Under the pieces are notes generated by a model that worked only from the letters and a program-made list of their open reading frames with translations, made no database searches and was not told where the DNA came from. From a virus (Duplodnaviria; Caudoviricetes), in IMG/VR virus record IMGVR_UViG_3300036760_000561, positions 1 through 58,728 of that record: a stretch of 58,728 nucleotides of DNA. One strand, written 5' to 3'. Both the position numbers and the translations under genes were made by a program. Every line of letters starts with the position of its first letter. Within the stretch, counting starts at the first letter, position 1. Below are positions 21,972 to 31,719 of this stretch, one piece after another.

Positions 21972-22922
21972 TTAGGCAACCGCGCCGTTGAAGAAGTATC
22001 CGCAATCAGCAGACACCTTCGCATGGGCGTATGCCTGCTCGCCCTCAATCCGATCACTGGCGAGATGCTCCATCCGGAACCGCTTAATCCGGGACCCCAC
22101 AATGGACCCGGTGAGCCCGGACCACGAGAACGTGTAGCCAGCAGTCGGCGTCATGATGGACGGGGAGGGAGTGGTGTAGCAGAGCAGAGCATGCTTGCCC
22201 GCCGCGAAATCGGTGGTCTGCGTCGCGTTGCCCTCGACCGTGCTGGTGAACACGGATTCCGAGACCAGGATGCGCTCGACATCGAAGAACCCCGCGAGCA
22301 TGGCGGTGTTGATGGAATCAGACGAGGTGTACTTGAACTGATCCTTGACCGCCGTACACTGACGCAGAGCCGCGATCACCCGCGCCCCCAGCACCAGCGT
22401 ATTCGGCTTCTGCCCGGTGGTGGACAGAATCTTGAGCTTGCCGGTCTCGACATCGCCCAGCGGATTCGCCGTCGCGAAGGTTGACCACAGCACGCCGGGT
22501 GTGATGTCCGTTGTCCAGATGCCGGTGGTGAAATACGCCGCCATCCAACTCCGTTCTTTCCGGATCGCGAGCTTCTGGCTGACGAATTCGGTCGCCGCCC
22601 GGTCAAGCTGCAACACGCTGTCGGCGTTGGCCCGCAACTGGTCGTCCACGTCCTTGTGGAACGCTTCGACCTTGCAGTTGTACGAAGCCGTGCTGAGTCC
22701 GAACCCACCACCTGCCGATTCCGTTCCAGCAGCGCGTTGCTTCGCCTCGTCCCGGAGGAAATCTTCCTTGGAATAGATGTAATACAGGTCACTCTGCTTC
22801 ATCACCGGCACGGCGGGAAACACCTTGTCTGCGATGAATGCGTTTTGATCCAGCATCCACGCCACTGAAATGTTCGTCAATGGAGCGTTTACATGGACAT
22901 CGCCAGAAGTCGGTTGCGGCAT
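21972..22922 (-). CDS. Major capsid protein
   Basis: HVNAPLTNISVAW...FIADKVFPAVPV...GYFFNGAV; RBS AAGGAG. Confidence 0.9.
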   Translation of the reverse strand: MPQPTSGDVHVNAPLTNISVAWMLDQNAFIADKVFPAVPVMKQSDLYYIYSKEDFLRDEAKQRAAGTESAGGGFGLSTASYNCKVEAFHKDVDDQLRANADSVLQLDRAATEFVSQKLAIRKERSWMAAYFTTGIWTTDITPGVLWSTFATANPLGDVETGKLKILSTTGQKPNTLVLGARVIAALRQCTAVKDQFKYTSSDSINTAMLAGFFDVERILVSESVFTSTVEGNATQTTDFAAGKHALLCYTTPSPSIMTPTAGYTFSWSGLTGSIVGSRIKRFRMEHLASDRIEGEQAYAHAKVSADCGYFFNGAVA

Positions 22923-23346: not shown

Positions 23347-24216
23347 TTACTTCGTGAGTGACTGTTCGTAGAGGGAAGGATCCATCTCGAATACCTTCCG
23401 AATGGCCTGTGCTTCGGTCATTTTGGAGTCGGACTTTCTGATCTCGCTGGCCTTGGCCGAGACCGCATCCCCGACGCTAACCCCAATCTTGCCGTACTTG
23501 CCGATCTCGGTGGTGAGAGCAGCGGCGGTTTCACGGGCCTTCTGGAGAATCGGAGTCAAAGCGGCTTCCACTTCAGGACCCATCTGCAAAACCTTGGCCA
23601 ACTCCTCCGGGTTACCCGGCATTCCGCCCAGCAACTCCTTCGCCTTCTCCACCGCCACGCGATTTCTTTCGGCGGTTTCAAACTTGGCGATCCGCTCATT
23701 GGCAGCTTTGGCCACGGCGGTTGCTTCGGCGGCTTCGGCTCCCGCCTTGGCAATGGCCTGCTCTGCCCGTCGTACAGTGTCTTCCGCCTTGGCAATAGCC
23801 TGTTTCATGATCTTCCCCTTGTTGGATTTGTCCTTGTCGCCTTCGTCGGTCTCCTCGGTTTCACTGGTGTCCTCATCGCCCTCAGGAGGAGTTTCTTCAC
23901 CCTCGTCATCCTCCTCATCGTTCAAGAAAGCGGGCTTCTCCTTCTTCACTTCGGATGAGAGGTGTTTCTCCAGTCTGGCCACATCCTCATCCAGAGCCTT
24001 GAGAACTTCTTCATCAGTGGAGAGAATTGTTCCGTCTCCCTTTTTCCCCACGGCCACGGTGCGAAGAGCGGACCTGAGCGCCCCAATGAACCCCTTGATT
24101 GCTGCCATGTGCGGCTCCTGTTCTGACTTGTAGACAAGAATGCGGGCACCTTTATTAGCGCCACGCTTGGCAAAACTGATTTCCCTAACGGAAAGATTCT
24201 TCAGTCGAGTGGCCAT
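23347..24216 (-). CDS. Scaffold protein with N-terminal protease-like segment
   Basis: LKNLSVREISFAKRGAN N-terminus, acidic linker, coiled coil. Confidence 0.75.
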   Translation of the reverse strand: MATRLKNLSVREISFAKRGANKGARILVYKSEQEPHMAAIKGFIGALRSALRTVAVGKKGDGTILSTDEEVLKALDEDVARLEKHLSSEVKKEKPAFLNDEEDDEGEETPPEGDEDTSETEETDEGDKDKSNKGKIMKQAIAKAEDTVRRAEQAIAKAGAEAAEATAVAKAANERIAKFETAERNRVAVEKAKELLGGMPGNPEELAKVLQMGPEVEAALTPILQKARETAAALTTEIGKYGKIGVSVGDAVSAKASEIRKSDSKMTEAQAIRKVFEMDPSLYEQSLTK

Positions 24217-24299: not shown

Positions 24300-25853
24300 C
24301 TAGTGGATTCTGACGGATTTCCGGGCGAATCGGTATAGATAGGCTTTGATACCACTTCCGCCAGAATGTCCTCCACTTCCACGGGAACGGAAAGGTCTCC
24401 ATTGCCGGGATGAGAGAGTGTTCTCTTCCACAACGACCGGATGCGTTCCAGAGTTGTCGTATCGGACATAACCATGAGCCATCTCCTTTACTTTTTGAAA
24501 TGTGGCAGCGGGTTTACTGTCTACTGTCACTAGGGTGTATTGGGGAGAGACAAATCTGCCGGTGGGAGCCTTTTTCCATCGCGATATAGTCCGCTGTACT
24601 GCTGTTTCCAAGGGGACGTGCACCTCATGCACAAATACCCGGTATCCCCGATTCCGAGCAGCCTTAATCAATTGTTCAATCTTGCTAGCCGTTTTCCCCG
24701 TCATCGGGGCCACCACATTAGCTCCTTGATGCAGAGCCCTATCCATAATAGATCCGGCCAACATGGAGGATTCTTCGTGTACAATTGCCGATCCACGTCC
24801 TCCGTCGTTCTCCGGGATTCGATCTTTGAATTCGTCAGGGTCCACCAATACCGCTGATCTCAAGGCAATCAGAGGATTAGCTACCTGAGTGGATTTTCCC
24901 GTTCCGGGTCCGCCCAAAACCAGATCTAGTATCCTCTGATTTCGAACTCCCCCTTGTGTTTGTTTGGCCCACTCGTCATCCACCCATCCAGCTCTCATTG
25001 CATGGCGCTCTTCGGTGTCTATGTGAGCTGTGATGGTGTGGCTCTTGAAATACCCCTCCTCGTCCTGCTGAATTTTCAGTATTTCCGGAGTTTCGTATTT
25101 CTTGAACAACGCCGCTATAACTTCTGCTTTCTCTTCTCCCACAGTCGGGGCATCGGCAAATCGGCCCCCGCCTTCCCCTGAGAGGACACGGGGATGTTGC
25201 GATTCGTTCCATTCTTTGACAACTCTGTTCAAACGGTCTCGAAGTTTTCCCCACCAATTTCGTTTAACCCGCGATCGAGTGGGAGACCACTCAATGCCCG
25301 GGGTGTGGGTATCGACAAGACCCGGATCATCCTTTGTCAAATCGAATATCGGTTCCCTAGTTGCGACTCCCCCGATGCTGAACCCTTGATATTCACCAGA
25401 TTTTACTTTGCTCCATACCCCATCATCCCTAACGTACACCGTCCCCATCCATCCAGTTGGAGTATCGGGAGGAAGGCCAAGGGTCTTTTTAACCCCCTTC
25501 GTCACTACCAACGATTCCACTACAGTACCTACCACTCGGGGCTCACCGTCCGCCCCTTTCATGTGGACTTCTCCGGCATCCCGATAATTCGTCATGAAGT
25601 TATGGGCGGTCTTAACCAACATGTCCTCGTCTATCACATCCCCCTGTGAATCCACATGCGGGGAACCATCCGAATTGGTAATCACCGAAAACCAACCGGT
25701 AACCAGACGCTGCTCCGCATCCACTTTGCGGACTGTACCGCCCCGCAACACCTCAAGAATGTGCGGGGTGGGTTCGCTCTTTCTGTCGGCGTCTTTCGAC
25801 TCCCACACCAGATCGCCCGGTTCCCACACGAATCTGTCAGTTGTAGTAGTCAT
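24300..25853 (-). CDS. XkdF-like prohead protease fused to zeta-toxin-like P-loop kinase
   Basis: QRLVTGW...DSQGD...H...VKSGEYQGFSIGG; then GGPGTGKST...DPDEFK...VHEESS. Confidence 0.85.
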   Translation of the reverse strand: MTTTTDRFVWEPGDLVWESKDADRKSEPTPHILEVLRGGTVRKVDAEQRLVTGWFSVITNSDGSPHVDSQGDVIDEDMLVKTAHNFMTNYRDAGEVHMKGADGEPRVVGTVVESLVVTKGVKKTLGLPPDTPTGWMGTVYVRDDGVWSKVKSGEYQGFSIGGVATREPIFDLTKDDPGLVDTHTPGIEWSPTRSRVKRNWWGKLRDRLNRVVKEWNESQHPRVLSGEGGGRFADAPTVGEEKAEVIAALFKKYETPEILKIQQDEEGYFKSHTITAHIDTEERHAMRAGWVDDEWAKQTQGGVRNQRILDLVLGGPGTGKSTQVANPLIALRSAVLVDPDEFKDRIPENDGGRGSAIVHEESSMLAGSIMDRALHQGANVVAPMTGKTASKIEQLIKAARNRGYRVFVHEVHVPLETAVQRTISRWKKAPTGRFVSPQYTLVTVDSKPAATFQKVKEMAHGYVRYDNSGTHPVVVEENTLSSRQWRPFRSRGSGGHSGGSGIKAYLYRFARKSVRIH

Positions 25854-26142
25854 CAGGGCACCACCTCCGCATCGACCATGATACCACTTGTGAAGCCAGC
25901 GGTTTTCACGCCTTTCACACCGGTTATCCTAAATCTGGTGCCGGGTTTTAGAATGAATTCATTCTTCACAAAGTAATTGGCCCCGGAACCACGCAACACC
26001 GCATTAGTCCAAATTCCTTGGGTGCCCTTGGGAACAGTAATTCTCATGTGAGTTGTCACACCCCCCTTGTAGGCTCTTTTGGCCCATCCTCTAGATTGTT
26101 CGGGCGAAATAGTGGTGGACATGAATCCTTTATCCCCCCCCC
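25853..26142 (-). CDS. C-terminal half of a VIP2-like ADP-ribosyltransferase domain, out of frame at G9
   Basis: DKGFMSTT...MRITVPKG...NEFILKPGTRFRI. Confidence 0.75.
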
Positions 26143-27348
26143 AACTGTACCGAGGCGTGTTCCCCACTCTTGTAGCACTTGATCCACCGTAACCTGATAC
26201 TTCTCCCCCGGCATCTTTAAAGCACCGTGAGAATTGTTGATGGCCCGATATACTACAATGGGACGGGTTAATGGGGGAGAATCTCTTATCAACTGTCGAA
26301 GCTCCTGTTTGGCATCCCCCAATTTTTCAGCATCGTCGGGATTCCACAGTATCGAGTCTTTGTAATGCTGAGCATCGGTGGCAGTTCGTAAACTCCCATT
26401 GATCAACCTATTTCCGTCCCCCATGTACGCCATAACTGCTTCCTGTTCTTCGTCAGTCACACCCACGCCGTGTCTCCACATCGCGTTTAAATGCCCGATT
26501 GTCCCCTGAGGCGACATCATCGGCTCATCCGTCACACTCGCGACATCTGTAATGCTTGGGACACCAGCGGCACTAACAAATCTGCCGCCTCCCGATGCGC
26601 CCCCGTCTTGACGGGGGTGAAGAGATTCCTCCCACTCCTTGCCCACCTTGGTAGAGGGGGGACGATACCACGACCCGAAAGACTGCGGGCGGTATCCTCT
26701 TTTCGAGCTGGCGGGGATGAATCCCAGACTCCTGTAAAATCTATGCAGAGCCGCTCGTTTCCGTGGAGTCTCCGATTCCGGACTTAACGTAACCGTCAGT
26801 CCTTTTTGATCGGCCCAATCCGTAACTTTCGTCATCATGCGATGGCCGTGTCCTTTACCACGTTCCGCTTTGGGCACCACGATATTAGCTACATGCGGCT
26901 CTCCGTTGGCAATCATCAACTCCAGACTGGAACCCGGGGGCGACTCATCACGGATGGACTGAGCGAGAGACTCCACTTCTTCGTCCAATGCGGCGGATTT
27001 GTTGCGAGTACGTGATTGCCAAAATGCGGTTCCCGCCTCCGTCTGATGGACTGGACTAGGACGGAGAGTTTGCCTTGTTTCCCGCTCCATGTGGTCATAC
27101 AATTGTGTTCCTAACCCCTGTCTACGACGTTCCGGTTTTACATGGAAATCCACGGCGTAGTCCCCGACACCGATCTTCTCGCCTTTTTCATCATACTTCC
27201 CCGCCAGCCGTGCCGAAGCGACGACTTCGTTGCCTTCACGCATCTCGAATTCACCGAGAGAGGTTTGCACAAAAGAGAACTTCCCTCCCTCATCACGAGG
27301 ATGAAGAGATTCCTCCCATTTTCGCACCGCAGCAAATAATGACGTCAA
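26056..27348 (-). CDS. GNAT-GNAT-ART(N-half) multidomain effector
   Basis: RRQGLGTQLY and RGKGHG...FYRSLGF GNAT motifs; AYMGDGNRLINGSLR...VVYRA ART motif; TTG start at 27348 inferred (track start 27378). Confidence 0.8.
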   Translation of the reverse strand: MTSLFAAVRKWEESLHPRDEGGKFSFVQTSLGEFEMREGNEVVASARLAGKYDEKGEKIGVGDYAVDFHVKPERRRQGLGTQLYDHMERETRQTLRPSPVHQTEAGTAFWQSRTRNKSAALDEEVESLAQSIRDESPPGSSLELMIANGEPHVANIVVPKAERGKGHGHRMMTKVTDWADQKGLTVTLSPESETPRKRAALHRFYRSLGFIPASSKRGYRPQSFGSWYRPPSTKVGKEWEESLHPRQDGGASGGGRFVSAAGVPSITDVASVTDEPMMSPQGTIGHLNAMWRHGVGVTDEEQEAVMAYMGDGNRLINGSLRTATDAQHYKDSILWNPDDAEKLGDAKQELRQLIRDSPPLTRPIVVYRAINNSHGALKMPGEKYQVTVDQVLQEWGTRLGTVGGGIKDSCPPLFRPNNLEDGPKEPTRGV

Positions 27349-27668
27349 GAACCCACCTTTTGCTTGGTGTCCAACCAAACGAATTCACCAGGGGGAAAGT
27401 GATCTTTGCAACGAACGCAAAACAACGCCCGATAGAACGATGGGTCGTGTGCCATCGTTTCTGCAATGGCGGAATGAATTCGAGTTACTGTGAAGCAGTC
27501 CATGTGCCGGTATTCTCGACGCACCGGACGCACCGGGTCTTTTTGTCGTTCTGCCTTGTCCAGCACCCAATAGTCTTTGTACATCCCGTCGGACAGTCGC
27601 GTCATGTCGGGACACGGAACGTCCCAGCCGTCGGGCGGGGGATCGTTGAATAGAGGAACTCGTGCCAT
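27345..27668 (-). CDS. Conserved-looking phage Zn-binding hypothetical protein
   Basis: VRPVRREYRH..C...AET...FY..LFCVRCKDHFP..EFVW. Confidence 0.65.
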   Translation of the reverse strand: MARVPLFNDPPPDGWDVPCPDMTRLSDGMYKDYWVLDKAERQKDPVRPVRREYRHMDCFTVTRIHSAIAETMAHDPSFYRALFCVRCKDHFPPGEFVWLDTKQKVGS

Positions 27669-27788
27669 AGAAACGCCCCCTCCCCTGAACCCTTATAAGC
27701 TTCGGTTTCTCTTGAATTTGAGTCTAGCCCTGTTGTCGAGTGCCGATTGCGTTATGTGACGTGCTCTCTCGGCTCTGGCCTCTTTGCT

Positions 27789-27917
27789 CTACACGACGGG
27801 TTCGGATTCTGAGGAACTTCCCCCGCCTCCGTTGTCGAATTTCCCGTCATCATCACGTGGGTGTGAGGACTCGTCCCACTTTTTCACGATTAGGTCAAAC
27901 AGAGTTGGCTTTTTCAT
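27789..27917 (-). CDS. Short peptide carrying the W-x-ES-x-HPR tag
   Basis: MKKPTLFDLIVKKWDESSHPRDDDGKF; ATGA coupling to MuF; RBS GGAG. Confidence 0.65.
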   Translation of the reverse strand: MKKPTLFDLIVKKWDESSHPRDDDGKFDNGGGGSSSESEPVV

Positions 27918-29005
27918 GATCTCCCCGGTATTGGTTTGATGAAAGTGACGCAACGACAATTCACTCCATGTGGCGCTCCCCAAGTCTGCTCGCCAGAATC
28001 CGGGGCAACAAAGTAGTCGTCATACCTTACCACTTGACCATTCATCTGGCGATGATTATGGTCTAATCCGAACCCCAAGGTTTGTCTGACAACCCCCTTG
28101 GCGCTCACCGTAATTCCTGGCCGTACTCTCTCATCGTGAGCAGTCGCCCAGCGTTTTTGCACATTGCCGCTACTGATGGCCCCTCTTTCAATGGCTTGGT
28201 CCCATCCCGCCCGTTGTCCTTCTGCTTGCATAGCAAGCGATTCAGTGCGAGCGATGGTCTCAGCCCTGTACGCAAGATAGCGACTCTCGTATCTCTCAAC
28301 AAGAAAGTCGATCCGTTTGCTGTCCAACGGGATTCCCTCTCGAAGTGCCCGCTTTATCTCAGGATCGAATCGCCGGTCTCGGAGTGCCCGATTGAGTGTC
28401 TCAGAATCGCCAGTCTCCAGCATGGTACGGAAATTCCTCACCGCCTGCGCCTGCCGTTCAGTCAACCCGATGATGCCCCCGGTTCGTCGTCCATCTTCCC
28501 CCACTCGTCCCGCCAATTGCGTGATGAGTGAACGCGGGTTAACTCCGTTGTGAATCTGCTCCATAAGATAACTACGGATTCCTTGCCGGGTTGGTTCGGC
28601 TATTTCCCGAATCAGCCTCAGATCGTTGCGCTGAATTGCATCAAAAGTTCGAGGATTGGCTATGTTGAAACTAACGGCGACCACTGGACCGAGGCGATCA
28701 CTCCCCACAAAGATGGCGGCATCAGCCAGACTTTTAGCTCCCACGTGCATGAGAGCTTCCCGGGTAGAATGCACCAACGGTGCCCATATGTCTAGAGAAG
28801 CGGTTTGGGGACCCAGAATCAGGTCTGCGGCTTTAATTACGTCACCCTCCTCGATGGCCGCAATCAAAGCTCGTACGGGAATCTGATTCCTAATCTGATC
28901 CATAACGAGCATAAAAGCCCGCCTGATCGGGGGACTCATCCGGTCTGCCAGCTTGGTCAGCCGGTCCCATATCAGAGAAGTGGCTTTTTCTACAGTTTCT
29001 GTCAC
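27914..29005 (-). CDS. MuF-like minor head protein
   Basis: RAETIARTE...KRWATAHDERVR...H...NCRC. Confidence 0.9.
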   Translation of the reverse strand: MTETVEKATSLIWDRLTKLADRMSPPIRRAFMLVMDQIRNQIPVRALIAAIEEGDVIKAADLILGPQTASLDIWAPLVHSTREALMHVGAKSLADAAIFVGSDRLGPVVAVSFNIANPRTFDAIQRNDLRLIREIAEPTRQGIRSYLMEQIHNGVNPRSLITQLAGRVGEDGRRTGGIIGLTERQAQAVRNFRTMLETGDSETLNRALRDRRFDPEIKRALREGIPLDSKRIDFLVERYESRYLAYRAETIARTESLAMQAEGQRAGWDQAIERGAISSGNVQKRWATAHDERVRPGITVSAKGVVRQTLGFGLDHNHRQMNGQVVRYDDYFVAPDSGEQTWGAPHGVNCRCVTFIKPIPGRS

Positions 29006-30366
29006 TGTTCTTCCCCAACGTCAGTATCTTTTTCGTCACTAGCCTGTGGCGGGTTAACCGCTGATGGAAGGGGAGACTTGGACGAAGATACGGAGTCGGG
29101 CGGTGGAGTGCCCAAGGAACTCACTGCTTCACTGTCTTCTTTTGCGAGGGGCAATCCCCCGATCTTTCTCAAGTAGTCCTCAAGATCTTTGTCGGGGAAC
29201 AGTGGCATGCCCACCCCAGCCAGTGACGTAATGTACGCCGCCATTCTGGCGAGGTCAGGCGAGTCCACTTCTCCCGGCACTAACATCGGCATCGTCCCGG
29301 CGGGCAGAGCGTTGATCTTCCACATCCGTCTGATCAACTGACGATTGAACACGCCACTGATGATCTGTGCCCATGCCCACAGTACCTGACTGAACAGCTC
29401 AGTCTTGTCCTTGGAGAGCGCAAAGCTTCCGGTTGTCTGCTGCCCCAACATGATGAAGTCAGCCAAAATGGTAGAGGAGATGCGTTTGTCGTATCGATCG
29501 ATGATTGCAGTCATGTCACCACTCCGCCTACCATCTGCCATCACGTATTCAATTTGATACAGCTTTTCGTGACTCTCCGGGTGCACGTCGCTGGGGAGCA
29601 AGATGCCCCCTTGCCGGTCCGAGGCCAGATTGGTCACCAAGGTTTCGTAGGCCGCTTTGATTGCGGCATTGCTGGGATCTAGAATGATGGAACCGGGAAC
29701 CCGAACTGTCACCAACCCCGCCGCTCGAATGGCCGCTCGTCCCTCCGACTCCTCAATCACCTTCTTGCGGAGCCACGAGACGTATGATCCCCGTAGGATG
29801 CTGCGCCCCTCCGGGTTATTGAGCGAAGAGTCGGTTCGGAACAGCAACATCTTCTCCATCGGAATCAGAACGGCGGGGTTTTCCCAATCCATCTGCCACA
29901 TTCCTGTCGGATCGCCGTTGCCCGGATCGAATTCCCACCGCAACAGCGTTTCCTGTGATCTCAAAGCAATCTTGGCGGGAACCCACAACTCTTCTCGGTT
30001 GGCCCAGACGATCTCATGCGGAGCGAAACCGTAGGTGAACATCGTGCAGATGCTGCTAACCAATTCGGGGAAAGTGGGGTCCAGATTGACAAACAGAACA
30101 TCCTCCATCATCTCCTTTGCTTCGATAGCGTCAGGGGAGGAATCCGCCGCCTCGATTTGCCACTCGATGTTTCGCACCAGCATGGATACTGAGAAGATCA
30201 AAGCTGCCACCACCGGGTCATTGAGTGACATCTCGGTGTATGCCCTGACTCCTTGCAATCCTTGCAATTGCGGCAGGAAATCCGCCGAGACGTACCCCCC
30301 TATTTTACGTAACCCGGTCGTTCCCACTGAGGAGGTCAACGGAGTTTTGGTCTTCTTCGCGGCCAT
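29002..30366 (-). CDS. Portal protein (Mu gp29/DUF935-like)
   Basis: YGFAPHEIVW, NPEGRSILR, GSFALS; follows TerL. Confidence 0.9.
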   Translation of the reverse strand: MAAKKTKTPLTSSVGTTGLRKIGGYVSADFLPQLQGLQGVRAYTEMSLNDPVVAALIFSVSMLVRNIEWQIEAADSSPDAIEAKEMMEDVLFVNLDPTFPELVSSICTMFTYGFAPHEIVWANREELWVPAKIALRSQETLLRWEFDPGNGDPTGMWQMDWENPAVLIPMEKMLLFRTDSSLNNPEGRSILRGSYVSWLRKKVIEESEGRAAIRAAGLVTVRVPGSIILDPSNAAIKAAYETLVTNLASDRQGGILLPSDVHPESHEKLYQIEYVMADGRRSGDMTAIIDRYDKRISSTILADFIMLGQQTTGSFALSKDKTELFSQVLWAWAQIISGVFNRQLIRRMWKINALPAGTMPMLVPGEVDSPDLARMAAYITSLAGVGMPLFPDKDLEDYLRKIGGLPLAKEDSEAVSSLGTPPPDSVSSSKSPLPSAVNPPQASDEKDTDVGEEQ

Positions 30367-30378
30367 GGTTTCTGCTCC

Positions 30379-31719
30379 TTATCCGCCGAAGGGATTCATC
30401 AGCGGAACCCCCAGCGTGGGAATGATCGGAACCCGGGACTTCTCCGGAAAATCAAAAGCTGCGTAAACCAAAGAATCCCCATCATCCGTGGACCGGCCTA
30501 TCCGCACCTTGATGGAATCCTTACTCTCTATCTCAATCACCTTGCCCACGATACGATAGCGAGGAGCAGACAGATCTCCCACCAATCGTTCCGACACCTT
30601 ATTGGGTAGAGAAAATAAGCCCATTCGAATCTTTTCACGGAACTCCCACCACATCTGAGACCGGAGATTTTTGAATTGAAAGAAGGAACCAACTCGCTCC
30701 ACCGGGGACGCCCCCGATATCACTTCCCGCACCATCAGGCCGTCCCGCCTCAAGTTATCCACCACACCGGGGGGCATGGTGTCAATCCGGATTTCTTCAG
30801 GACTCACTTCAAAATCGGACGCTCGGACCTTGGTAATGTCGGCCACTCTGTCAGTCGGCAAACCGTGAAAGCTCTCCGAGGCGACCATGGCGTTGCCGTC
30901 CAGAAAAGTTAACACGGTATTGTCATCACCATATCGCGCCACGTCCACCCCCAATCGTCGTATCCCGGGTACTGGCTCCACATTCTGTGCGGCCCAAATC
31001 CACTCTGCTCGAATCAGCTGATCGGGGTCCTCCAGAAAGTTCCACAGCCCCTTGACAAATCGATCATACTCAGTTGGGGGCAGATTCTTGAGGGACTCTT
31101 TGTACTCCTCTGGAATGTACGGGTTATCGAGGATGGTGGCTTGTTGGAAGAAGTACCGAGGAGGTAGGGTACCCAACATGCTGGGATCGTAGAACACCTT
31201 CTTAGGCCATCGCCCCGTTGGGTTGACGGTATTGAGTACTAGAGGATGCGGCTGCTTACCCCCGGGAATGAGCCACGATCCCGCCCGTTCGATGGTCTTG
31301 TAGAAGGTCTTTTCCGAGATCTCATCACATTCTTCATTGAGGAACCCGTTCACTTCAAGACCGTGAAAGCGATTGAGCTCCGGGTCGTCTTTGATAGACT
31401 CGGGGAGAAAGATAATTCGAGATCCGTTGGTGCAGGTGGACTCCCAAGTACTCTTATTGATCTCACCGATGAAATCGTGGGGACGAATGCGGTCAAAAGT
31501 GGGGATGGTGTTACGTCGGAGAGTCGGCAGATCCTTTCTAACCACGGCCCATCGAGAGTTAGGAAAAATTCGAGACAGCAGAATGATGGCTCCTAACCCG
31601 CCATACGACTTACCACTGCGAATTCCCCCTCCGAATAGCAGATAGTAATAGTCACCGCTGAGTGCGGCTTCAATGAATCGAGTTTGCTTATCGGATGCCG
31701 CAAACTCGAATTCGTCCAT
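30379..31719 (-). CDS. terL: Terminase large subunit
   Basis: GGGIRSGKS Walker A; GVDVARYGDD and DDGDSL nuclease motifs. Confidence 0.92.
   Translation of the reverse strand: MDEFEFAASDKQTRFIEAALSGDYYYLLFGGGIRSGKSYGGLGAIILLSRIFPNSRWAVVRKDLPTLRRNTIPTFDRIRPHDFIGEINKSTWESTCTNGSRIIFLPESIKDDPELNRFHGLEVNGFLNEECDEISEKTFYKTIERAGSWLIPGGKQPHPLVLNTVNPTGRWPKKVFYDPSMLGTLPPRYFFQQATILDNPYIPEEYKESLKNLPPTEYDRFVKGLWNFLEDPDQLIRAEWIWAAQNVEPVPGIRRLGVDVARYGDDNTVLTFLDGNAMVASESFHGLPTDRVADITKVRASDFEVSPEEIRIDTMPPGVVDNLRRDGLMVREVISGASPVERVGSFFQFKNLRSQMWWEFREKIRMGLFSLPNKVSERLVGDLSAPRYRIVGKVIEIESKDSIKVRIGRSTDDGDSLVYAAFDFPEKSRVPIIPTLGVPLMNPFGG

Follow-up and report, generated by a model that had tools for sequence, protein, structure and literature searches.

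Why should one short peptide recur in three open reading frames (ORFs) among the head genes of a tailed phage? The window, by which we mean the whole stretch of 58,728 nucleotides of virus record IMGVR_UViG_3300036760_000561 that was analysed, carries on its minus strand four copies of the motif [KE]-W-[DEN]-E-S-x-H-P-R…G-[KR]-F, in three ORFs between the gene for a MuF-like protein and that for a probable scaffold. An earlier note on this DNA had read them as a capsid-loading or ejection tag of effector proteins. Capsid-borne proteins that act in the first seconds of infection are hard to predict from sequence, and a header that hardly varies would make them recognisable by a simple test. Such a tag would also be a handle on the selection and release of internal head proteins outside T4.

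Four Copies of the Tag in the Window

The four copies, all on the minus strand, are listed below with their profile scores.

27837..27884, minus strand: tag 1, core KKWDESSHPRDDDGKF, followed by DNGGGGSSSESEPVV and a stop codon; 50.9 bits
27277..27324, minus strand: tag 2, RKWEESLHPRDEGGKF, near the N-terminus of the GNAT-GNAT-ART ORF; 36.8 bits
26578..26640, minus strand: tag 3, KEWEESLHPRQDGGASGGGRF, at the junction of the second GNAT and the ART, with a long spacer between HPR and G-R-F; 32.3 bits
25158..25217, minus strand: tag 4, KEWNESQHPRVLSGEGGGRF, at the junction of the XkdF protease and the zeta kinase, with a long spacer; 27.3 bits

Searched as a degenerate DNA pattern, W-x-E-S-x-H-P-R gave four matches on the minus strand and none on the plus strand; the mean expected by chance was 0.01 (100 shuffles), and a reversed-pattern control gave no match. 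A six-frame scan of the whole window with a profile of 112 tags recovered exactly these four, and all the copies that the earlier note had located were found in place. Any two window tags use different codons for 2 to 4 of the 6 to 8 residues that they share, so that their likeness is kept at the protein level and does not stem from a recent DNA duplication. The V-x-K that had been described ahead of each tag is present in the window but does not hold across 520 tags, where position -1 is E in 27%, D in 27% and K in 11%. The plus-strand reading of 27837-27884 is interrupted by a stop codon.

Genes around the Tags

The genes follow one another in the order TerL, Mu-type portal, MuF, the tag 1 ORF, a 107-aa ORF, tag 2-GNAT-GNAT-tag 3-ART, XkdF protease-tag 4-zeta kinase, a 289-aa probable scaffold, a cement protein and the major capsid protein (MCP). 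Domain and PHROG matches thus agree with the placing of the tags between MuF and scaffold in the earlier note.

29002..30366, minus strand: portal of the Mu type, without tag (PF06074, 1.7e-34; phrog_113)
27914..29005, minus strand: MuF-like head morphogenesis protein (PF04233, 2e-8; phrog_3517, 1.2e-68)
27789..27917, minus strand: 42-aa ORF made up of tag 1 and a Gly/Ser tail only, whose ATG overlaps the MuF stop codon (ATGA)
26056..27378, minus strand: ORF with tag 2, two GNAT domains, tag 3 and the N-terminal half of an ADP-ribosyltransferase (Pfam Acetyltransf_1, two stretches, 1.2e-14); its frame ends past the G run
26134..26142, minus strand: nine consecutive G, where the ART switches reading frame; the only independent contig stops within this run
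25853..26167, minus strand: C-terminal half of the ADP-ribosyltransferase in another frame (PF03496 ADPrib_exo_Tox, 3.8e-8; phrog_3895)
24300..25853, minus strand: ORF with an XkdF-type prohead protease (residues 41-166; PF14550, 1.4e-18), tag 4 and a zeta-toxin-like kinase (residues 296-456; PF06414, 1.7e-19)
23347..24216, minus strand: 289-aa acidic protein, a probable scaffold from its position and composition (sole match phrog_17741, of unknown function)
21972..22922, minus strand: major capsid protein (phrog_1005, 2.2e-83)

In this assembly, a break of frame at the nine-G run divides the ART in two. The prohead-protease (XkdF) domain upstream of tag 4 was absent from the earlier note.

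Tag 1 belongs neither to MuF nor to a cargo gene. Two in-frame stops (TAG and TAA) lie between the 42-aa ORF and the next ORF, and a contig of an independent sample that spans 27411-27960 shows 0 differences; among the sequencing runs, no RNA data set containing this DNA is listed. The claim that the tag stands in front of effectors therefore holds for tags 2-4 and fails for tag 1, which occupies the 42-aa ORF without cargo. No match to this ORF was found in PHROGs. Two other origins of tag 1 were considered: read-through from the 42-aa into the 107-aa ORF is ruled out by the in-frame TAG and TAA and by a separate ribosome-binding site, and a usual C-terminal tail of this MuF family was rejected, the tag being present in 0/120 near-length homologues.

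Anatomy of the Header

The header consists of a short Ala/Leu-rich stretch, a compact knuckle and a flexible Gly/Ser-rich linker, after which the enzyme domain comes next. The consensus of the knuckle is [ED]-[WF]-x-E-x-x-H-P-R-x3-G-[KRQ]-[FW]. Over 520 tags, E is conserved in 96%, H in 99%, P in 98%, R in 100% and G in 97%; W, E, H, P, R, G and F were fixed in the pattern by which the tags had been collected, and the profile carries part of that bias. Gly reaches 48-55% at positions +16 to +18 in the same set. In a set of 536 tags, position 0 is aromatic in 519 and position -1 acidic in 294, and [WF]-x-E is followed by S, A or G in 324. Internal tags are conserved like N-terminal ones, so that each junction is under selection. 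In an AF2 model computed from the 112-tag alignment, the tag forms a compact turn with good local confidence (pLDDT about 83 over residues 11-30).

Where several tags occur in one protein, they are spaced at a median of 266 aa (5-95% range 140-618, n = 382), with no interval below 50 aa. Of 154 proteins, 72 have their first tag no further than 60 aa from the N-terminus, and 2 have their last tag equally close to the C-terminus; in 17/154 the tag stands 5-14 residues past Met, and in many prophage proteins it sits at residue 3-4. None of 48 distinct tags (56 rows) overlapped a Pfam stretch, and in simple fusions the effector domain starts 9-55 aa past the end of the tag. Judged by these arrangements, the tag is the N-terminal header of domain-sized modules, one per module, be it in a single gene or in a polyvalent polyprotein. 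The modularity proposed earlier is borne out by this spacing and by the position of the tag, always outside of and N-terminal to enzyme modules.

Tagged modules elsewhere (IMG/VR ORFs and library proteins) include ADP-ribosyltransferases, GNAT, zeta kinase, NUDIX, PBECR1 and Acb1. The acetylating, ADP-ribosylating and phosphorylating cargo that had been predicted is thus seen, as GNAT, ART and zeta kinase domains, behind tags both here and in relatives. A tag profile with a table of downstream domains and gene context, the check suggested in the earlier note, returned effector domains and a head-gene setting. About half of the tagged proteins scanned lack a recognisable domain (21/62, 34/63 and 5/24), and many of these could be new anti-defence or takeover enzymes. 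Among 87 scanned library proteins, no relaxase, ArdC or T4SS domain was found and one FtsK_SpoIIIE domain was present; on these counts, an origin of the tag in conjugative elements was rejected.

Spread across Phages

The tag was found in 3,605 cluster representatives at E<=1e-3 (377 at <=1e-10), with up to 18 copies per protein. In IMG/VR, at least 123 stretches carried the motif versus 3 for the reversed-pattern control. It is also present in prophages of many bacterial phyla, among them Actinomycetota, Bacillota, Pseudomonadota, Melainabacteria and Planctomycetota. The guess that the motif is widespread was therefore correct. When loci were picked by MuF likeness, 1/80 contained tags; the tag is thus not a component of head assembly in general.

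Narrower searches returned little. The 42-aa ORF used as a tblastn query, which is too short for the purpose, had no match at E<=1 in cultured phages, and a 32-aa tag query matched 12 of 50,697 records at E<=10. Related loci numbered three when sought with the four window tags, a pattern that is too narrow, and none when the MuF sequence alone was the query. The four tags, used in a word-indexed search, yielded 5 foreign proteins only.

Link to Head Genes and Proteases

A head domain is present in 23/62 scanned tag-bearing IMG/VR ORFs (portal in 17, DUF2213 in 5 and MuF in 1) and in 6/63 and 8/24 tagged library proteins. MuF lies within 6 kb of a tag in 23 of 24 records, versus ca. 25% by chance. 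Both sets of counts uphold the claim that the carriers are head-encoded.

Proteases were surveyed in 37 tag-bearing records of at least 30 kb. DUF2213 was found in 21 of them, XkdF in 5, Mu-like_Pro in 2, an HK97-type S78 protease in 1 and a ClpP-like protease alone in 1; if DUF2213 and Mu-like_Pro are counted as assemblin-like, such proteases occur in 29/37 carriers. None of the protease families searched for was detected in the other 7/37, four of which are at least 90% complete; in these four near-complete phages the tag ORF still lies beside portal, TerL, MuF or MCP. Peptidase_S49 was found in 0/10 records and Peptidase_S77 in 0/7, the latter result being uninformative since the controls were equally silent. 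Tag and protease share one polypeptide in the window (XkdF) and in other carriers (DUF2213).

Kinship of XkdF and DUF2213 was not established by hhalign (probability 0.5%). No solved structure of an XkdF domain was found, and an AF2 model of DUF2213 built from 5 sequences had a pLDDT of 52. Prediction of a complex between the XkdF domain (residues 28-188, 9-row alignment) and a 36-aa tag (112-row alignment), run without controls, gave ipSAE values of 0.02 and 0.02 (mark 0.32) and speaks neither for nor against binding. Portal families differ among carriers. The window MCP has a detectable relative in 3/36 other tag-bearing records, which makes the MCP unlikely as a conserved reader and leaves no conserved shell partner apparent. 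Among the proteases, portals and MCPs compared across carriers, no single conserved reader of the tag was found.

The Tag and Known Systems

Tag peptides had no match in Pfam at E<=1, none in NCBIfam and none among PDB chains at E<=10. A close parallel is the capsid-targeting sequence (CTS) of T4, which is carried by internal proteins IPI-III and Alt, is removed by the gp21 head protease and is weakly conserved and lineage-specific. As with the CTS, the peptide is short, lies on the N-terminal side (72/154 first tags, with 2/154 near the C-terminus) and is borne by non-structural proteins whose genes accompany head genes; an ADP-ribosyltransferase is among the cargo of both, and the tag may follow the same course of prohead loading, clipping and then injection. 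In contrast to the CTS, the tag is near-invariant across phyla and is also found internally, once per module and up to 18 times per protein; its packaging and cleavage are putative.

Encapsulin cargo-loading peptides, which are mostly C-terminal and bind the shell protein, are likewise short and conserved and are joined by a flexible linker to unrelated enzymes, which they direct into an HK97-fold shell, as the tag may do. The tag differs in being N-terminal to its module, and the shell proteins of its carriers are too diverse for one evident conserved site.

The cargo itself is familiar from polyvalent proteins with portal-, MuF- and peptidase-fused effectors, whose domains have been described and whose processing was predicted mainly by zincin-like peptidases, as far as the portions consulted go (Iyer et al. 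2017, PMC5512222; Iyer et al. 2022, PMC9503650). From the same portions, ART-PolyVal, PBECR1, LPD3, LPD13, InPase, zeta kinase and NUDIX are shared with tagged proteins, and the fusions to portal, MuF and assemblin-like peptidase are the same. The window conforms to this type: GNAT, GNAT and ART are combined in one ORF pair and protease and zeta kinase in another ORF; its genes lie between MuF and MCP, one of them fused to XkdF, and relatives are fused to portal, MuF or DUF2213. The main texts of both papers, supplements aside, do not contain "HPR" and do not mention a conserved inter-module header. In MuF polymorphic toxins of temperate phages, the MuF head protein carries variable toxic C-terminal domains, the cargo, in the portions consulted, being fused directly to MuF, whereas the window MuF ends ahead of the tag; the main text of that paper lacks "linker", "HPR", "glycine", "cleav" and "conserved motif" (Jamet et al. 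2017, PMC5576092). A full-text motif search of the literature also found no description of the tag. The domains and head-gene fusions are thus already known, and the near-invariant header before each module is, as far as these searches reach, probably undescribed.

What the Header May Do

We give an even chance to the reading, suggested by the placement of the tag and its conservation, that it heads a portable cassette whose cargo travels inside the phage head. The knuckle would be recognised, while the procapsid is being assembled, by some conserved component of the assembly machinery; the first candidate for this reader is the prohead protease of assemblin-like type, which is XkdF in the window and DUF2213 in most other carriers. 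Each module would thereby be taken inside the shell, and the same recognition would lead to clipping at or beside the header, so that modules freed from portal, MuF, protease or each other could leave with the DNA. The tag would act as both address and cutting joint, in the manner of the T4 sequence. Tags at residues 3-14 of standalone proteins have nothing to cut off, which argues against a pure cutting role, and tags in portal or protease fusions are superfluous for entry, which argues against a pure address role. Of the loading or ejection tag claimed earlier, the modular, widespread and head-associated character and the expected cargo stand, while V-x-K beyond the window and cargo for tag 1 do not.

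It is unlikely that the tag is a pure cutting joint, i.e., a recognition site at which a head or polyprotein protease separates modules, with no part in capsid entry. Polyproteins with as many as 18 tags show a conserved copy for each domain-sized interval, which would suit such a joint, but the 17/154 proteins tagged 5-14 residues past Met and the many prophage proteins tagged at residue 3-4 offer nothing to separate. Tags are also kept between portal or protease domains and cargo whose entry is already assured, and [WF]-x-E followed by S, A or G (324/536) is similar to the hydrophobic-x-Glu sites at which the T4 head protease cuts; yet fourteen conserved positions are far above the usual need of a protease site. 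The presence of assemblin-like proteases in 29/37 carriers, if DUF2213 and Mu-like_Pro count as such, is offset by protease families that differ between carriers or were not detected.

We find it no more probable that the header serves on exit or after entry, as a leading end that threads the module into the portal and tail channel or as a motif for refolding, placement or controlled turnover in the cell. Such a role would by itself fit both extreme N-terminal tags and tags in portal fusions, although internal tags would need a putative cut just upstream in order to become leading ends. Threading would be eased by the flexible Gly/Ser linker that follows the header, but position -1 is acidic in only 294/536 tags. 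Occurrence of the same motif across bacterial phyla points to a reader that all tailed phages, or all cells, have in common, whereas no partner was identified in the carriers compared. A passive structural cap, i.e., a small self-folding insulator or solubility aid spread by cassette recombination and read by nothing, agrees with the compact AF2 structure of the tag alone, its constant location in linkers and, as a possible recombination joint, the great diversity of downstream domains, but is very unlikely given H, P and R that are 98-100% invariant across phyla (beyond the needs of a spacer), restriction to head-gene contexts and tags at the very N-terminus of single-domain proteins, where no insulation is needed.

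The cassette reading has a bolder form, possible but doubtful, in which the ca. 25-residue header would be a universal "zip code" of tailed phages, alone enough for any protein to be taken up, released and delivered into the next host, with some conserved element of the head machinery as its reader. If true, thousands of proteins that lack annotation would stand out as injected effectors, and a tag sufficient for loading could become a tool for putting chosen proteins into phage particles. For the window, the cassette reading would mean delivery of a pair of acetyltransferases, an ADP-ribosyltransferase whose frame is broken in this assembly and a zeta-type kinase, and tag 1 would be a header without cargo.

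A Recurring Tag in the Head Module

The region under study comprises the head genes of an uncultured tailed phage (its 58.7-kb IMG/VR record is estimated to be 72% complete). All head-module genes lie on the minus strand, in the following order:

30379-31719, minus strand: TerL
29002-30366, minus strand: Mu-type portal
27914-29005, minus strand: MuF
27789-27917, minus strand: 42-aa ORF with tag 1
27345-27668, minus strand: 107-aa ORF
26056-27378, minus strand: two GNAT domains plus the first half of an ADP-ribosyltransferase (ART), in one ORF
25853-26167, minus strand: second ART half, in another frame
24300-25853, minus strand: XkdF-type prohead protease domain, then a zeta-toxin-like kinase, in one ORF
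next in order, minus strand: 289-aa acidic protein, probable scaffold, named by position only
end of the order, minus strand: cement protein, then major capsid protein (MCP)

Four copies of a short motif, [KE]-W-[DEN]-E-S-x-H-P-R...G-[KR]-F, had been reported in this module by an earlier note made from the sequence alone, and all four were recovered exactly, on the minus strand, at 27837-27884, 27277-27324, 26578-26640 and 25158-25217 (tags 1 to 4). A DNA pattern encoding W-x-E-S-x-H-P-R matched the window four times, against 0.01 matches expected from shuffled sequences, and the reversed control pattern matched nowhere in it. A six-frame scan of the window with a 112-tag profile retrieved only the same four tags. 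Residues common to the copies are often written with different codons, which indicates that selection acts on the peptide.

Tag 1 forms a separate 42-aa ORF that consists of the tag and a Gly/Ser tail and nothing else. Its ATG overlaps the MuF stop codon, two in-frame stops lie downstream, and the junction of the two genes has the identical sequence in a contig from a second sample. In the nearest Atlas cluster there are 120 proteins, each about 40 aa long and half of viral origin (score 0.89, to be taken only as a lead); header-only mini-proteins may thus recur. Tag 4 is positioned after the protease domain. The long spacer of tags 3 and 4 is unusual, being present in 3 of 119 tags from 79 IMG/VR loci and the window.

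The ART reading frame shifts at a run of nine G (26134-26142, minus strand). The likely source sequencing run shows the identical sequence, and the sole independent contig stops within the run; the frame change may be an assembly error, a variable tract or a real break. The 107-aa ORF between tags 1 and 2 carries Cys pairs and no tag. It matched no Pfam or PHROG family and falls in conserved viral clusters of hypothetical proteins of about 100 aa (Atlas scores 0.94-0.96; structure TM 0.90-0.93).

Anatomy and Distribution of the Tag

A consensus was drawn from 520 tags in 154 high-scoring proteins. An Ala/Leu-rich stretch is followed by [ED] at position -1, W (76%) or F (19%) at position 0, [DNE], E (96%), [SEAD] and any residue; then come H (99%), P (98%), R (100%), [DAG], two variable residues and G (97%), and the core closes with K (39%), R (37%) or Q (12%) and F (88%) or W (7%). 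The invariance is partly built in, since W, E, H, P, R, G and F were constant in the pattern used to collect the seed tags. Behind the core runs a Gly/Ser-rich stretch, with Gly at 48-55% at positions +16 to +18. AF2 modeling from a 112-row alignment yielded a compact turn, predicted with local confidence (pLDDT about 83 at residues 11-30, mean 76), in which R and F are bridged. The tag was covered by no model in Pfam, NCBIfam or PHROG and by no chain in the PDB.

The expectation that the motif is widespread was borne out by a pattern scan of IMG/VR, a profile search of 1.84 billion cluster representatives and a scan of species-representative genomes. A word-indexed search with the four window tags retrieved five foreign proteins, which bear between one and four tags amid MuF, portal and ART domains. 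The canonical form was searched as a 42-base degenerate DNA pattern, which matched at least 123 stretches in IMG/VR, compared with three for the pattern read backwards; 124 distinct tag instances, up to five per ORF, were read from the IMG/VR loci listed. The 112-tag profile retrieved 3,605 proteins at E ≤ 1e-3, 377 at ≤ 1e-10 and 15 at ≤ 1e-30, with up to 18 matched stretches in one 7,334-aa protein.

In species-representative genomes, at least 125 stretches matched the same DNA pattern. Among the matches listed, 109 show K, R or Q where expected and about 10 are false, lying in another frame of a Lactobacillaceae gene; hosts among them include Actinomycetota, Bacillota, Pseudomonadota, Melainabacteria, Elusimicrobiota, Planctomycetota, Verrucomicrobiota, Spirochaetota and Desulfovibrio. 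The recurring false match (loci L156, L174, L192, L197, L200, L218, L226, L254 and L257), from Lactobacillaceae and Paenibacillus, has the form W*EG.HPS..GNF and contains stops; it evidently stems from a conserved gene read in a different frame or on the other strand. Contigs assigned by binning to Heimdallarchaeota and Methanomethylophilaceae MAGs (L177 and L216) also carry tags of canonical appearance; these contigs may represent archaeal viruses or binning contamination.

A weak search of cultured phages matched 12 of 50,697 records, including Pseudomonas phages Orisa/Orimi, Xanthomonas phages PhiXhv-5 and PhiXhv-7 and a Burkholderia phage whose small gene behind MuF is headed by the tag. 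In Pseudomonas phage Orisa03, a portal ORF bears the F variant of the tag ahead of a C-terminal domain. Out of 80 viral loci picked solely by likeness to the window's MuF, only the closest MuF relative (L265) carries tags, of a shortened variant. The tag is therefore an accessory and not a fixture. At L265:100-7790, the variant Y/F-[DE]-E-[SA]-K-HPR-N-[RK]-GKF occurs in three ORFs upstream of MuF, and SEHPRGEHGRF is found in a NUDIX-containing ORF downstream of MuF.

The Tag Heads Effector Modules near Head Genes

Successive tags stand about one domain apart (median distance 266 aa, 5-95% range 140-618, none below 50; n = 382). Of 154 proteins, 72 have their first tag no more than 60 aa from the N-terminus, and only two have their last tag that close to the C-terminus. 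Of 48 distinct tags (56 rows), not one overlaps with a Pfam stretch. The tag is thus a header, one per module, on the N-terminal side. In simple fusions, it ends 9-55 aa ahead of the effector domain and starts 56-112 aa past the portal domain. Ahead of N-terminal tags lie leaders of 5-59 aa without any common sequence; the tag starts 5-14 residues after Met in 17 of the 154 proteins and at residue 3-4 in many prophage genes.

As the earlier note had suggested, a profile of the tag was built and downstream domains and gene context were tabulated, which revealed effector domains and a head-gene setting. Domains were scanned in 62 of 76 tag-bearing IMG/VR ORFs, the 14 shortest being left out. Head-assembly domains were Phage_portal_3 (15), DUF2213 (5), Portal_Mu (2) and MuF (1); effector domains were ADPrib_exo_Tox (8), PBECR1 (5), LPD3 (4), Zeta_toxin (3), NUDIX (3) and ART-PolyVal (2). 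Acb1, methyltransferase, glutamine deamidase, PI3/PI4-kinase-like, SNF2 and other domains were also present, and 21 of the 62 ORFs matched no family. In two further sets of tag-bearing library proteins (63 and 24), ART families were found in 16 and 9 and head domains in 6 and 8, respectively; conjugation hallmarks were found in none of the library proteins scanned.

MuF could be detected in 30 of the 37 tag-bearing records at least 30 kb long; in 24 of them it scored above the curated cut-off. In 23 of these 24, a tag lies within 6 kb of MuF (median 1.65 kb), compared with about 25% by chance.

Effectors fused to MuF, portal and a capsid-processing serine peptidase are described in the main texts of Aravind-group papers (PMC5512222, PMC9503650), which predict packaging, injection and proteolytic processing of such proteins. 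Neither "HPR" nor a conserved inter-module header appears in those main texts, or in the main text of the MuF-toxin paper (PMC5576092), and literature searches by motif strings and phrases returned nothing relevant on the tag.

Possible Role of the Tag

The proposal of a modular head-cargo tag is supported, at the level of comparative sequence evidence, in its modularity, breadth and head context; its other part, loading or ejection, we only infer. A tag at the very start of a single-domain protein cannot act only as a separator, and a tag retained between a portal or protease domain and its cargo cannot serve for entry alone. Both positional facts would be accommodated most simply by a label recognised once per module for both loading and release, comparable in this respect to the T4 capsid-targeting sequence. 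We give roughly even chances to the tag being an address plus a cutting joint, read by the head-assembly machinery and most likely by the prohead protease.

A role after release, as an exit or after-entry leader, would fit both positional facts too, and we consider it improbable. A cutting joint only is about equally improbable: it would agree with the tags retained between portal or protease domains and cargo, but the extreme N-terminal tags of single-domain proteins have nothing to separate. A passive cap seems the least probable.

As candidate reader of an address plus cutting joint, a head component shared by every carrier was sought. DUF2213 was found in 21 of the 37 records, XkdF in 5, Mu-like_Pro in 2 and HK97-type S78 and ClpP-like proteases in one each; none of the protease families searched was found in the remaining seven. 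In the four near-complete (≥90%) records among these seven, the tag ORF still adjoins portal, TerL, MuF or MCP genes. DUF2213 is annotated as "head maturation protease" in RefSeq phage records; its relatedness to XkdF could not be demonstrated by comparison. A sequence-conserved pocket on the shell or portal is not evident, since a relative of the window's MCP could be detected in only 3 of the 36 other carriers and portal families vary among carriers.

The XkdF domain is N-terminal in the window ORF at 24300-25853, with cargo after it; in three of the four other XkdF carriers (L133, L135 and L136), it closes long multidomain ORFs of 401-782 aa without a tag. In several multi-tag proteins (P0002, P0006 and P0007), the C-terminal region is an HExxH zincin-like domain that matches ATLF or SprT-like families weakly, and two others contain Peptidase_C39-like domains; some tagged polyproteins could thus be processed by proteases other than the prohead protease.
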